Sequence record: PV682947.1
Length of the DNA: 64,000 bases
Reading direction: 5' to 3' (one strand)
DNA from: Escherichia phage WPEC4
The stretch's first letter is position 1. Every line of letters begins with the position of its first letter. Under the pieces are notes generated by a model, which was given only the letters and a program-made list of their open reading frames with translations, searched no databases and was not told the origin of the DNA. This document shows, in pieces, positions 53,551 through 55,441 of this stretch. A program made the translations under genes and the position numbers.

Positions 53551-53955
53551 TTATTGAAGTTTAAGTGAACCACGAAGACGTTTCTCTTGCTGATCACGGA
53601 TATATTGTGGAACCTCGTGAATTGAATCATTACCGTGCCTATTTTCAACAACTAAAGAGATAACTTGATAACCAAACTCTTCAGCAAGAGCTAGATAAGG
53701 TTTAAGTTCTTTCTCTGTGGTTGAAGTATTAGAAACAATAATCTTGTTAAGATTAGATGCCATAGCATCACGAACAATACCCTGACACCATGCGTGTGCT
53801 TTACCTACATTTTCTGGCTTCCAATCGTAAACACCACTCTCTGTGTAATGATATTGATCTGCCTCACAGATAGGCCAATAACCTTCAGAAATAATTTCTG
53901 CTACTGTAGATTTACCAGCACCTGAAACACCACGTAAAATGATAAGTTGTTTCAT
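53551..53955 (-). CDS. P-loop polynucleotide kinase-like protein
   Basis: Walker A GVSGAGKST at N-terminus; 134 aa; adjacent to ligase-like and phosphoesterase genes. Confidence 0.55.
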   Translation of the reverse strand: MKQLIILRGVSGAGKSTVAEIISEGYWPICEADQYHYTESGVYDWKPENVGKAHAWCQGIVRDAMASNLNKIIVSNTSTTEKELKPYLALAEEFGYQVISLVVENRHGNDSIHEVPQYIRDQQEKRLRGSLKLQ

Positions 53956-54888
53956 TTATCCTCCAAAAAAGTTTTCGATTTTTTCACGTCGCTCTTGCTG
54001 ATTTAAAGCAGCCCATTGAATCTTCGTAAAATTATTTCGAATCCATTCTAACAAAGCGTAATATTCTTCGTCAACCATTTGTTTGGCATTTTTTGGATTA
54101 TCCCAAATCAGATCCCACTTTTTATCTCCACCGCGCATAAGAAACTTCTTAGTAAGATAGTGTGGTGATTTAATTTTTAAAAGTAAGTTGAACGGATAGT
54201 TTGTTTCACGAACTACAAACCCTTCGTGTTTACAATGTTTAGACATTTCAACAACATCTGAAAACTTAACCATTGGATGAACTTCAGGACGCTTAAATTT
54301 GGTGACAGAAGCAATTCCATCAAGAGCACCTTCAGGTAACATAAAACTTGTCCCATCAGGATTTTGAATTCTGGCACCAATTAAGTATGCACCTGGTTCT
54401 TCTTCGACAATATGCGGATCAGAAGGATCACAGATTTCAAAAAGGAAAGTTGCTTTTGCACTCTCTGTCCATTTGATGAAATGTTCTATGTCATCACACT
54501 CTGAAACAATATGATTCTTTGCAATACTTGCAAAATCTGATTCAAGGCTTCCTGTTGTCGATACAATAAGTTGACCTTTATATACACCTACAGAGGCCAT
54601 AAAACCATTTACTTTACGAACCACATCTACAAGTTCATCCGCTGGTAGATCTGTGCCATTCTCAAAACGATTAAAAATCTTAGTGAAAGGCCAAATAACA
54701 ACATTGTCATCAGCATCAACAACGATTCCGCGACATTCTAGAAGACGAGAATCAATGCTCCATAAGTTATCCCAGAAAACTTTGTTCTTATACTTAAGAA
54801 CAGATAGACCAGAATACTCTCCTTCTTTATATGTTTTCTTATGAACTAAACCTTTTTCAACCAAATCGTCGCAATTAAATTTAGCCAC
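53956..54888 (-). CDS. RNA ligase-like nucleotidyltransferase
   Basis: Motif I KVNG, motif IV EGFVVR, motif V LLLKIK. Confidence 0.55.
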   Translation of the reverse strand: MAKFNCDDLVEKGLVHKKTYKEGEYSGLSVLKYKNKVFWDNLWSIDSRLLECRGIVVDADDNVVIWPFTKIFNRFENGTDLPADELVDVVRKVNGFMASVGVYKGQLIVSTTGSLESDFASIAKNHIVSECDDIEHFIKWTESAKATFLFEICDPSDPHIVEEEPGAYLIGARIQNPDGTSFMLPEGALDGIASVTKFKRPEVHPMVKFSDVVEMSKHCKHEGFVVRETNYPFNLLLKIKSPHYLTKKFLMRGGDKKWDLIWDNPKNAKQMVDEEYYALLEWIRNNFTKIQWAALNQQERREKIENFFGG

Positions 54889-54889
54889 A

Positions 54890-55441
54890 TTATTCTCCTT
54901 TGATTATTTTGTGATGGTCTACAGTCACGATATCTCGTTTACTCATCATAGAAATTATCTCATCAAAATGCAAGATTTTTCCGTGTGCATCCCAACCCAC
55001 ATCTAACATTTTACCATAAGCTTCATCAGGGAAAGATCCGTGGGAATGCCCGTGTAGCATGATTGATCCACGACCTTGTTTATTCCAGGAGGCCATAGGG
55101 TAATGGCTTAAGACGAAGAACAGCTTCTGATATTTCACTTCGTCATAATACACCACTTCTCCATACTCTGCAAGCACTTCTTGGTGTTTGCTGTAGTCAT
55201 GGTTCCCAACACAGTAGGTGATATCTCCTTGGAGACGGGAAGCAATTTTACGGGTATCTTCTTCAGTTCCGAAACAGAAGTCGCCCAAATGCCACATCTT
55301 AACACCAGGAGTAGTAGCACATTTGTTCCATGCTTCGATCAAGGCTTCTGTCATGTGGTCCATATCTTCCCACGGACGATATTCAGGAGCAAACTCTCGA
55401 ATACGTTTATGCATAAAATGCAAATCGCTTGTAATAAACAT
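54890..55441 (-). CDS. calcineurin-like metallophosphoesterase
   Basis: DLHFMH, GDFCFG, GNHD, HGHSH motifs. Confidence 0.7.
   Translation of the reverse strand: MFITSDLHFMHKRIREFAPEYRPWEDMDHMTEALIEAWNKCATTPGVKMWHLGDFCFGTEEDTRKIASRLQGDITYCVGNHDYSKHQEVLAEYGEVVYYDEVKYQKLFFVLSHYPMASWNKQGRGSIMLHGHSHGSFPDEAYGKMLDVGWDAHGKILHFDEIISMMSKRDIVTVDHHKIIKGE

Follow-up and report, generated by a model that had tools for sequence, protein, structure and literature searches.

Organization of the Locus

The window analyzed, a 64,000-nucleotide stretch of DNA of Escherichia phage WPEC4 (genus Phapecoctavirus; PV682947.1), was 100% identical to phage WPEC1. Three adjacent genes were found on its minus strand, encoding a metallophosphoesterase, or MPE (54890–55441; 183 aa, ATG start), an RNA ligase (53956–54888; 310 aa, GTG start), and a P-loop kinase (53551–53955; 134 aa, ATG start). 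The original prediction had named these three neighbors, and its boundaries were exact for all of the open reading frames. It did not include two further minus-strand genes located upstream: the coupled gene of a PF26092-family protein (phrog_839; 55441–55797; 118 aa), which has no assigned function, and the gene of cREC (55957–56313; 118 aa, PF20274). Between these two lies an ORF for an acidic protein of 47 aa (55804–55947, minus strand), annotated as "hypothetical" in related phages; a homologue was present at only one other locus among the phage loci compared.

The gene junctions in this string are TAATG, in which the stop codon of the PF26092-protein gene overlaps the start codon of the MPE gene, TAA-T-GTG, and TAAATG, with a Shine–Dalgarno sequence inside the preceding gene at each. 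By these signals, the genes of the string are translationally coupled at all junctions. Neither the promoter scan (35 vs. 30.5 in shuffled sequence) nor the terminator scan (10 vs. 6.3) gave matches over expectation, and no operon boundary was obtained from them.

The cassette sits in the early/DNA-metabolism block together with exonucleases, RNR, and ThyX, outside the tail module. An ATP-dependent DNA ligase (51681–52808) is encoded 1.1 kb downstream of it and, beyond this gene, a MazG-like protein (50563–51288) at 2.3 kb; the RNA ligase, cREC, kinase, and MazG genes are all inside 5.8 kb of the window. A Sir2 gene (20572–21387; PF02146, 1.9e-22) was found on the plus strand 32 kb from the cassette, and a lambda-type phosphatase, separate from the cassette MPE, at 13906–14649 (1g5b at 5.5e-27). 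The tRNA gene cluster (60068–61993, plus strand) belongs to the context of the cassette, may supply substrates for it, and lies outside the operon. The dozen adjoining tRNAs of the original prediction thus correspond to a nearby cluster of 10 (ARAGORN) or 11 (Rfam) genes, but one that begins 4.6 kb from the MPE start and is on the opposite strand.

RNA Ligase

The protein encoded at 53956–54888 matched Pfam family RNA_lig_T4_1 (PF09511) over positions 1–227 of 227 (3.8e-15, 56.8 bits vs. a cut-off of 28.3) and phrog_562 (3e-70). A search of the PDB with the single sequence gave no match; the family profile reached T4 Rnl1 as its sole PDB match (4e-10) and did not reach Trl1. With the structure model (pLDDT 90), Foldseek placed Trl1-LIG and T4 Rnl1 on top (E 5e-13 to 3e-12, TMq up to 0.67), T4 Rnl1 having the better TM-score and rmsd; Rnl3 (1e-10 to 1e-7) and Rnl2 (1e-6) were also matched. 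DNA ligases came no higher than rank 27 (that of ASFV; E 3e-5, TMq 0.40), and the 50 top Foldseek matches listed for the model included no capping enzyme. Judged by profiles and modeled fold, the 310-aa protein is an ATP-dependent RNA ligase of the Rnl1 (T4 RnlA/Trl1-LIG) clade, in line with the Rnl-like ligase originally predicted.

Residues R53, K70, F72, K92-x-N94-G95, E151, E222-G223, K238, and K240 were invariant in 16 homologues. Nucleotidyltransferase motifs I (KxxG), III (Glu), IV (EG), and V (KxK) were all present: K92/G95, E151, E222/G223, and K238/K240 align with K99/G102, E159, E227/G228, and K240/K242 of T4 Rnl1. The motifs read earlier from the translation, KVNG (K92), EGFVVR (E222/G223), and LLLKIK (K238/K240), were thus all recovered, as was the Walker A motif of the kinase. 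Essential residues specific to Rnl1 in the N-terminal part of the T4 enzyme are, reportedly from Shuman-lab mutagenesis, R54, K75, and F77; K119 is essential as well. The first three align with R53, K70, and F72 of the cassette ligase, all of them invariant, and the position of K119 is occupied by an invariant Thr (T112) in its family.

The ligase is 64 aa shorter than T4 RnlA and differs from it in a reduced C-terminal region. The profile alignment to T4 Rnl1 ends at residue 242, and the C-terminal helical region, of ~65 aa, is about half the size of the ~120-aa tRNA-specificity domain of T4. The score against the NCBIfam equivalog of T4 RnlA, TIGR02308, was 24.1 bits vs. a cut-off of 242; every NCBIfam match of the cassette proteins was far under its cut-off and gave no usable assignment. 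The ligase family carries the database label "RNA ligase and tail fiber protein attachment catalyst".

Polynucleotide-Kinase-Like Protein

The 134-aa protein matched AAA_33 (2.7e-10), phrog_2071 (2e-56), and phrog_505, "polynucleotide kinase" (8e-8). A match to a phrog dNMP kinase was limited to the P-loop, residues 1–35. The best full-length PDB matches of the family profile were Pnkp1, the Trl1-type kinase, T4 Pnk, CthPnk, and PSTK. Foldseek with the model (pLDDT 85) gave CthPnk on top (TMq 0.77–0.78, E 3e-7) and T4 Pnk at TMq 0.75, with gluconokinase at 0.57 and adenylate kinases at about 0.5. Both profiles and folds point to an RNA ligase and a polynucleotide kinase in this cassette. Every in silico check suggested with the original prediction was in its favor, and the placement that was named as refuting it, the ligase among DNA ligases or capping enzymes and the kinase among dNMP kinases, was not found.

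The Walker A motif GVSGAGKST (G9-x2-G12-x-G14-K15-S16-T17) has invariant G12, G14, and K15. Asp33, also invariant, aligns with the catalytic D35 of T4 Pnk and with the Asp of the Pnkp1 "NRDD" motif, and the position of T4 R38, the acceptor-phosphate Arg, is taken by the nearly invariant His36. In the RxxxR lid, R106 aligns with T4 R122, and D110 stands at the position of R126; H107 and H113 are invariant. By these alignments and the model, the protein is a P-loop kinase of the polynucleotide 5'-kinase clade (T4 Pnk/CthPnk), and we propose that it would act as a 5'-OH end-healing enzyme. It consists of the kinase domain alone, with no HAD DxDxT phosphatase domain on the 134-aa polypeptide. Its family has thousands of representatives.

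Metallophosphoesterase

The MPE matched Pfam Metallophos (PF00149) over the gathering score (2.8e-5) and phrog_547 (5e-56), which bears out the calcineurin-type phosphoesterase of the original prediction. Its family profile matched aq_1665 (1xm7) in the PDB at 9e-22 and GpdQ at 7e-4. The five metal-binding motifs (DxH, GD, GNH[DE], H, and GHxH) were all present and invariant in the family; in 21 homologues, the invariant residues were D6-x-H8, G53-D54, G79-N80-H81, H113, and G131-H132-x-H134. By profile and motifs, the protein is a dinuclear metallophosphoesterase of the aq_1665/COG4186 subfamily, of which we know no characterized member.

Activity of 2',3'-cyclic phosphodiesterase has been demonstrated for lambda phosphatase and for the Pnkp phosphatase. 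Neither of these was matched by the MPE family profile in the PDB at E ≤ 1, and hhalign of the cassette MPE with the lambda-type MPE of the phage itself gave a probability of 21%. We propose that the cassette MPE would be an end-healing enzyme acting on 2',3'-cyclic phosphate or 3'-phosphate. A weak match of this protein to the ligase-associated PdeM was seen in NCBIfam (0.0024).

Linkage and Gene Fusions in Related Phages

We surveyed 80 loci with 50 non-redundant ligase lineages (39–88% identity), counting as neighbors the genes within 7 kb of the ligase. The MPE was found in 46 of the 50 lineages and the kinase in 45; 42 lineages had the complete set of three genes. Random placement in genomes of 90–150 kb would, by our estimate, give roughly 10–15% co-location. 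The median spacing between the MPE and ligase genes was about 210 bp, and gene order took at least five arrangements among the lineages. tRNA genes were within the same distance in 20/50 lineages.

Natural fusions were also found. The kinase precedes the ligase in polypeptides of about 430 aa (L050 and P0426) and follows it in others (P0490 and P0380); at one locus (L086), a kinase–ligase fusion is succeeded by the MPE gene. Fusions of the kinase with an HD phosphoesterase, in either order, occurred as well (P0400, P0434, P0500, and P0507). In no case was the MPE fused to the kinase or the ligase, either at the 80 loci or in the 150 top-ranking kinase representatives. The conserved linkage in permuted orders, together with the fusions, supports one shared heal-and-seal RNA repair pathway.

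Such linkage and fusions would be unexpected if the functions were unrelated, as they would be were the ligase to act mainly in tail-fiber attachment, as T4 gp63 does with its second activity, next to a kinase and an MPE that serve nucleotide metabolism or degrade immune signals. Database labels do name tail-fiber attachment, Iyer et al. term the kinase a "nucleotide kinase" (PMC9503650), and calcineurin-like phosphodiesterases of other phages have been proposed to degrade cyclic-nucleotide signals (PMC7824862). The label is, however, carried over from T4 gp63, the genes are in the early/DNA-metabolism block and not in the tail module, the catalytic residues of the ligase are invariant, and the kinase fold is nearest to polynucleotide kinases. 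We regard a main role in tail-fiber attachment as very improbable.

The location in a DNA-metabolism module, 1.1 kb from an ATP-dependent DNA ligase gene, would also fit a function in DNA end processing. In replication, in recombination, or in mending restriction damage, the kinase and MPE would then prepare 5'-OH and 3'-phosphate DNA ends for sealing by that DNA ligase, and the Rnl1-like protein would be incidental. The weak PdeM match of the MPE fits this as well. T4 Pnk/Pnkp and HD-Pnk use DNA as well as RNA (PMC6097658), which leaves RNA a predicted substrate. However, only 17/50 lineages had a DNA ligase homologue inside the 7-kb limit, at 0.6–4.4 kb and never adjacent, whereas the RNA ligase is an adjacent or fused partner; the kinase was fused to RNA ligase and never to DNA ligase. 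DNA end processing is in our view a very improbable function of the kinase and MPE.

The neighbor count for DNA ligase was made with single-pass phmmer, which replaced a jackhmmer search giving 63 matches with apparent drift into RNA ligases. By the phmmer count, DNA ligase was rejected as a specific partner of the cassette.

cREC and the PF26092-Family Protein

The cREC protein, which has a receiver-like domain, matched PF20274 at 1.6e-13 (51.6 bits vs. a cut-off of 27). Its invariant residues D8-D9, D52, D54, S91-N92-P93, and K98 comprise a Rec-like acidic pair, a central Asp, a Ser, and a Lys. In rV5-like and related loci, its gene is placed between the ligase and kinase genes or right after the ligase gene; it was near the ligase in about 10 of the 80 loci, all of enterobacterial 145-kb phages. 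cREC is predicted to be a clade-specific fourth member of the cassette and an accessory cyclic phosphodiesterase. A role in cyclic-phosphate processing was predicted by Iyer et al. (PMC7824862), and no protein of the family has yet been shown to be catalytically active (PMC9503650).

The PF26092-family protein matched phrog_839 at 7e-47. All of its homologues carry PF26092, and some are labeled "anti-restriction nuclease"; no match was found in the PDB or in the Pfam set searched. Its membership in the cassette is doubtful because it was linked in only 3/80 loci.

Comparison with Known Systems

T4 encodes PseT (Pnkp) and RnlA (Rnl1), which counter the anticodon nuclease PrrC, and the same three activities are predicted here. 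The ligases of the two phages belong to the same clade, the kinases share a fold and a catalytic Asp, and in both the repair genes are phage-encoded in a genome with tRNA genes. The architecture differs from that of T4, as was originally predicted: in T4, the kinase is fused to a HAD (DxDxT) phosphatase, whereas here a bare 134-aa kinase is accompanied by a separate dinuclear MPE, and the three genes are contiguous and translationally coupled.

The Pnkp of Clostridium thermocellum (Pnkp–Hen1) combines the same superfamilies, a P-loop polynucleotide kinase, a dinuclear MPE, and an ATP-dependent ligase, and the cassette kinase finds its best structural match in the Pnkp kinase domain, CthPnk. 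Bacterial Pnkp is, however, one polypeptide (kinase–metallophosphoesterase–ligase) and the cassette has three ORFs; the cassette MPE is of the aq_1665 type and not of the lambda-phosphatase type of Pnkp, and the ligase is of the Rnl1 type. The bacterial system also has an adjacent gene for the 2'-O-methyltransferase Hen1; no Hen1-like methyltransferase was found among the ten neighboring proteins scanned, nor were RtcB, Rnl2, 2H, or KptA. The earlier idea of Pnkp-type activities split over three genes holds only as an analogy between predicted activities: by family membership, the resemblance reflects independent assembly and not a split orthologue.

HD-Pnk is a characterized end-healing enzyme with 2',3'-phosphoesterase and 5'-kinase activities (Munir and Shuman 2017, in PMC6097658). 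In the HD-Pnk and ligase (+Tpt1) cluster of Runella slithyformis, the end-healing kinase is encoded beside a ligase ORF, as in the cassette, and overlaps it (PMC6097658). The HD–kinase architecture was also found in close relatives of the cassette kinase (E about 1e-41 to 1e-36). The bacterial system heals 3' ends with an HD domain fused to the kinase, a task that would fall to a separate MPE in the phage cassette.

A further counterpart is the type 2 sirtuin neighborhood of Escherichia phage V5 and Proteus phage Mydo (Iyer et al. 2022), which has the same gene families: a T4-like tRNA ligase, cREC, a small kinase, a MazG-like pyrophosphatase, and a calcineurin-like phosphoesterase. The Mydo ligase is 58% identical to the cassette ligase. 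Homologues of all these families were found in the rV5-like phage FV3, in which the order ligase–cREC–Sir2–MazG was seen. The type 2 neighborhood couples a sirtuin to the ligase, and FV3 has this feature, whereas in our window Sir2 is 32 kb off on the other strand. The MPE was described as "occasional" in type 2 neighborhoods (PMC9503650), whereas no partner of the ligase was more constant in the lineages surveyed here.

The model put forward for these neighborhoods is an NAD+-linked, yeast-like repair in which cREC converts the 2',3'-cyclic phosphate into a 2'-phosphate, the kinase and the Rnl1/Trl1-like ligase join the strands, and Sir2 removes the 2'-phosphate in the manner of KptA/Tpt1 (PMC9503650). 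In WPEC4, cREC is encoded within the gene string of the cassette and retains its Rec-like acidic residues, the window encodes both Sir2 and a MazG-like protein, and E-values for the ligase model were as strong with Trl1-LIG as with T4 Rnl1; the gene order in FV3 and the NAD-salvage genes adjoining the cassette in Pakpunavirus point the same way. Against this stand the rarity of cREC beside the ligase (about 10/80 loci, vs. 46/50 lineages for the MPE), the distant Sir2 gene, and the ligase profiles, which reach T4 Rnl1 and not Trl1, T4 Rnl1 being also the better match by TM-score and rmsd. Moreover, no sirtuin is known to remove an RNA 2'-phosphate. We consider such NAD+-linked repair unlikely in this phage. 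It is also quite unlikely that the cassette is the visible half of an NAD+-dependent ligation of the fungal type, with the aq_1665-type MPE as a new class of enzyme for RNA end healing or for the clean-up of ADP-ribose cyclic phosphate. If NAD+-dependent repair were nevertheless the case, it would bring a new RNA-repair chemistry for sirtuins and the first demonstrated activity of cREC.

Proposed Pathway

The reading we prefer, and hold to be probable, is that the three genes form a phage heal-and-seal RNA repair pathway of separate, co-translated proteins, with tRNA as the likeliest substrate and counter-defence as its purpose. The kinase would phosphorylate the 5'-OH at an RNA break, and the MPE would strip the cyclic phosphate or 3'-phosphate to leave a 3'-OH; the upstream cREC may assist in this step by opening the cyclic phosphate. 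The Rnl1-type ligase would then reseal the break via a Lys92-AMP intermediate. The likeliest substrates would be the anticodon loops of tRNAs after cleavage by abortive-infection nucleases, and with such substrates the cassette would serve as counter-defence beside the phage's own tRNA genes.

The in silico support for this pathway comprises the enzyme families, the intact active sites, the structural matches, the operon coupling, the linkage, and the fusions. Points against it are, for the MPE, its membership in a subfamily unmatched to lambda or Pnkp phosphatase at E ≤ 1, in a phage that encodes a true lambda-type phosphatase elsewhere; for the kinase, the departures from T4 Pnk and CthPnk at His36 and in the lid, of which only the first Arg is conserved; and, for the ligase, T112 in place of Lys119, the short C-terminal region, and the low RnlA equivalog score. 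We infer the preference for RNA over DNA, the end chemistry of the MPE, the tRNA target, and the anti-defence role, since our literature search found no experimental work, biochemical or genetic, on any cassette member.

Such neighborhoods were reportedly described by Burroughs and Aravind in 2016, who are likely the first to have done so. The same pathway model was proposed independently from comparative genomics by Iyer et al. in 2021 (PMC7824862, section 3.4.9) and 2022 (PMC9503650, section 3.7.3); the cassette neighborhood had thus already been described computationally, and the idea is not new. Nor would a test of the cassette overturn a concept, because the logic of healing the 5' end, healing the 3' end, and sealing is already established.

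Significance and Distribution

Defences that cleave tRNA are now seen as widespread and include PrrC, RloC, PARIS, retron effectors, Schlafen-like nucleases, and Cas13. The phage answers known from experiments are repair by T4 PseT/RnlA and replacement tRNAs encoded by phages. Among alternative solutions for such repair, the cassette is probably the most common. An experimental test would give a function to the aq_1665 MPE subfamily and tell how its carriers cope with RNA-targeting immunity.

The gene set is frequent among large phages. Relatives of the ligase subfamily were found in 607 cultured phage genomes, including those of Pakpunavirus, Vequintavirus, and Phapecoctavirus, which are therapeutically used phage groups. 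A scan of 185,579 cellular species genomes with two short peptide patterns, an insensitive search, gave 5 loci, mostly on MAG contigs, which suggests that the subfamily is restricted to phages.

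Gene Organization of the Cassette

The window belongs to a Phapecoctavirus, a phAPEC8-like E. coli myovirus; its region 53000–57000 is 100% identical in Escherichia phages WPEC1, WPEC2, and WPEC6 and 97–99% identical in many further phages. An ORF check returned exactly the boundaries of the original prediction for three minus-strand genes, encoding a metallophosphoesterase (MPE; 54890–55441, 183 aa), an RNA ligase (53956–54888, 310 aa), and a P-loop kinase (53551–53955, 134 aa). The ligase starts at GTG, from which its N-terminus aligned in register with homologues beginning M(A)KFN. 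In deposited genomes, the MPE gene is labelled phosphoesterase or metallophosphatase, and the kinase gene ATPase or "putative polynucleotide kinase". The ligase gene is labelled RNA ligase, in some records also tail fibre attachment catalyst; the alternative role in tail-fibre attachment goes back to this inherited label.

At all three junctions of the gene string (GAGGGA..TAATG, AAGGAG..TAA-T-GTG, and GGAGGATAAATG), the start codon abuts or overlaps the preceding stop codon, and the Shine–Dalgarno sequence lies inside the upstream gene. The gene upstream of MPE (55441–55797, minus strand), encoding a 118-aa PF26092-family protein (phrog_839), is coupled to it in the same manner. Invariant in this family are R47-H48, Q76-G-F-x-D80, and a C-terminal ELFSEGLY-like motif. 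Homologues are widespread in large phages, jumbo phages of Serratia and Pseudomonas among them, with the label "anti-restriction nuclease" in some GenBank records; no relative was found in the PDB. Two genes upstream of the cassette, a cyclic-phosphate processing receiver-like protein (cREC; 55957–56313, minus strand; PF20274, 1.6e-13) is encoded, with invariant Rec-like acidic residues, Ser, and Lys. A MazG-like pyrophosphohydrolase (50563–51288) and an ATP-dependent DNA ligase (51681–52808) are encoded nearby.

Analysis of the Encoded Proteins

Pfam RNA_lig_T4_1 matched the ligase over the whole model (3.8e-15), and a profile of 16 homologues found T4 Rnl1 as its sole match among all PDB sequences (4e-10; query 49–242 against 51–250). 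The structure model was confident (pLDDT 90); its best matches were fungal Trl1 ligase domains and T4 Rnl1 (E 5e-13 to 3e-12, TM-score up to 0.67), followed by Rnl3, Rnl2, and Rnl5. The predicted RNA ligase identity held against the DNA ligase and capping families: the best-placed DNA ligase ranked 27th (E 3e-5), and the 50 best structural matches listed included no capping enzyme. Residues R53, K70, F72, K92, G95, E151, E222, G223, K238, and K240, invariant in the 16 homologues, aligned in order with R54, K75, F77, K99, G102, E159, E227, G228, K240, and K242 of T4 Rnl1, residues essential to that enzyme in the Shuman-lab mutagenesis. Unlike T4 Rnl1, the window ligase has Thr112, invariant in its family, in place of Lys119 and a helical C-terminal region of about half the length; its score falls well short of the NCBIfam threshold for T4 RnlA equivalogs.

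The kinase matched AAA_33 (2.7e-10) and phrog_505 "polynucleotide kinase" (8e-8), whereas a dNMP-kinase PHROG matched over the P-loop only. The best full-length PDB matches of the family profile were Pnkp1, fungal Trl1-type kinase, T4 Pnk, C. thermocellum Pnk (CthPnk), and PSTK. The structure model (pLDDT 85) resembled CthPnk (TM-score 0.77–0.78) and T4 Pnk (0.75), with gluconate, adenylate, and APS kinases scoring lower. Invariant D33 aligns with the catalytic Asp35 of T4 Pnk. His36 occupies the position of Arg38, and the RxxxR motif of the lid keeps its first Arg but not its second. Judged from the modelled fold, the protein is a predicted polynucleotide kinase. Close relatives include an N4BP2-like polynucleotide-kinase/Smr architecture: giant proteins P0456 (2322 aa) and P0485 (2373 aa) carry three or four copies of the kinase domain, the former also with DUF1771 and Smr domains.

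All five dinuclear-metal motifs of MPE were invariant in 21 homologues. With the family profile, the nearest solved structure was the uncharacterised Aquifex aq_1665 (9e-22); neither lambda phosphatase nor Pnkp phosphatase matched in the PDB at E ≤ 1. MPE was only marginally alignable with the phage's own lambda/NinI-type Ser/Thr phosphatase (13906–14649, plus strand; 1g5b, 5.5e-27).

By descent, the cassette is not a split Pnkp: its ligase is of Rnl1 type, its MPE comes from another subfamily, and Hen1 was not found among the ten neighbouring proteins scanned. Its functional parallels are T4 PseT plus RnlA, bacterial Pnkp-Hen1, and the Runella HD-Pnk/ligase cluster.

Conserved Linkage and Gene Fusions

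Iterated profiles built from the window proteins were run against the six-frame ORFs of 80 viral loci encoding ligase relatives (39–88% identity), and grouping of the loci at 80% ligase identity left 50 lineages. Within 7-kb ligase flanks, MPE was found in 46 of 50 lineages, the kinase in 45, and all three together, mostly as direct neighbours, in 42, counts that carry no phylogenetic correction; by our own estimate, chance placement in 90–150 kb genomes would give linkage of about 10–15%. Median MPE–ligase spacing was about 210 bp. Gene order was MPE-ligase-kinase (with or without cREC) in 20 lineages, kinase-ligase-MPE in 14, kinase-MPE-ligase in 4, ligase-MPE-kinase in 3, and divergent in 1. 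That the genes stay adjacent through so many changes of order favours selection for their co-expression over inherited synteny as the explanation.

Natural fusions also support the proteins belonging together. Pfam-confirmed kinase–ligase fusions of about 430 aa were present at 13 loci, and on a 284-kb MAG contig such a fusion is directly followed by MPE. The closest representatives of the kinase family include ligase–kinase (P0490, P0380) and kinase–ligase (P0426) fusions, and the family is also fused with HD phosphoesterase domains in either order (P0400, P0434, P0500, P0507). The latter architecture is that of HD-Pnk, a biochemically characterised end-healing enzyme (Munir & Shuman 2017, described in PMC6097658). 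A DNA ligase homologue lay within 7 kb of the RNA ligase in 17 of 50 lineages, adjacent in none; linkage and fusions alike speak against DNA end processing in the service of the nearby DNA ligase.

At a distance of about 5.3 kb downstream of its kinase–ligase fusion, one viral contig (L050) carries a tmRNA-like gene (13177–13579, plus strand; tag AANDANYGDYALAA). In Patescibacteria and uncultured MAG contigs (L089, L090), reached by a genome-collection scan with short peptide patterns, ligase homologues are split into short ORFs under code 11, which an alternative genetic code or pseudogenes could explain.

A computational description of the neighbourhood is already published. Iyer et al. (2021) linked jumbo-phage RNA ligases with calcineurin-like phosphatases and cREC (PMC7824862, section 3.4.9), and a 2025 Pakpunavirus genome paper recorded the kinase-ligase pair, the kinase being without a 3'-phosphatase domain (PMC12846349). 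In a related Pakpunavirus, we found an MPE homologue about 0.9 kb upstream. New here are MPE as the most constant rather than an occasional partner of the ligase subfamily, the kinase–ligase and kinase–HD fusions, and the model-based structural assignment of the kinase to the polynucleotide kinases. Our literature search found no experimental study of the cassette, which is a good candidate ready for testing, not a surprise.

Proposed Function and tRNA Genes

The in silico data show which families the proteins belong to, that their catalytic residues are intact and their folds match, and that their genes are coupled, linked, and in places fused; the function proposed on this basis is probably heal-and-seal RNA repair. 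The kinase would provide the 5'-phosphate and MPE the 3'-OH, perhaps once cREC has opened a cyclic phosphate; the Rnl1-type ligase would seal the break last. The RNA substrate and the end chemistry of MPE are inferred, as are a main target in tRNA anticodon loops and a role against host defence; that the physiological substrate is tRNA cut by host anticodon nucleases seems to us evenly balanced.

A dozen tRNAs had been noted beside the cassette; the cluster is present, with ten genes by ARAGORN and eleven by Rfam, on the other strand and beginning 4.6 kb from MPE. In 20 of the 50 lineages, tRNA genes occurred no more than 7 kb from the ligase, six of these lineages having clusters of 7–14; this proximity is suggestive, but lineages with shared synteny are not independent cases. 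The predicted tRNA-Asn(GTT) gene (60859–60944, plus strand; 86 nt) is unusual for Asn in having G73 and a long variable arm of class-II type. A Tyr-type scaffold whose anticodon has changed could account for it; the corresponding cluster of the rV5-like phage FV3 contains an 84-nt tRNA-Tyr(GTA). The eleventh element (60765–60849, plus strand; 85 nt) scored 39 bits with the Rfam tRNA model and was not called by ARAGORN. As drawn by ARAGORN, the second tRNA-Met(CAT) (61915–61993, plus strand; 79 nt) has an unpaired A-C atop its acceptor stem, a feature resembling initiator tRNAs.

In rV5-like and related enterobacterial phages, cREC lies between ligase and kinase or right after the ligase, and in FV3, MPE and kinase are divergent from ligase, cREC, Sir2, and MazG. 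Most other lineages are without cREC. This patchy distribution weakens the rival, less likely assignment to an NAD+/sirtuin-dependent pathway (Iyer et al.; PMC9503650), as do the distance of Sir2 (20572–21387, plus strand; PF02146, 1.9e-22) from the cassette, 32 kb in the window, and a ligase nearer to T4 Rnl1 than to Trl1.

The plus-strand block at 14–22 kb holds both the lambda-type phosphatase and Sir2. In phage ukendt, their homologues share the strand of the cassette, so that, compared with ukendt, this segment of the window appears to be inverted or rearranged; the two Sir2 proteins are just 68% identical. In Pseudomonas phage 20Sep416 (Pakpunavirus; 5346–8181 of locus L085), NAD+ salvage genes adjoin the RNA repair genes: ligase and kinase are directly followed by ribose-phosphate pyrophosphokinase and nicotinamide phosphoribosyltransferase.
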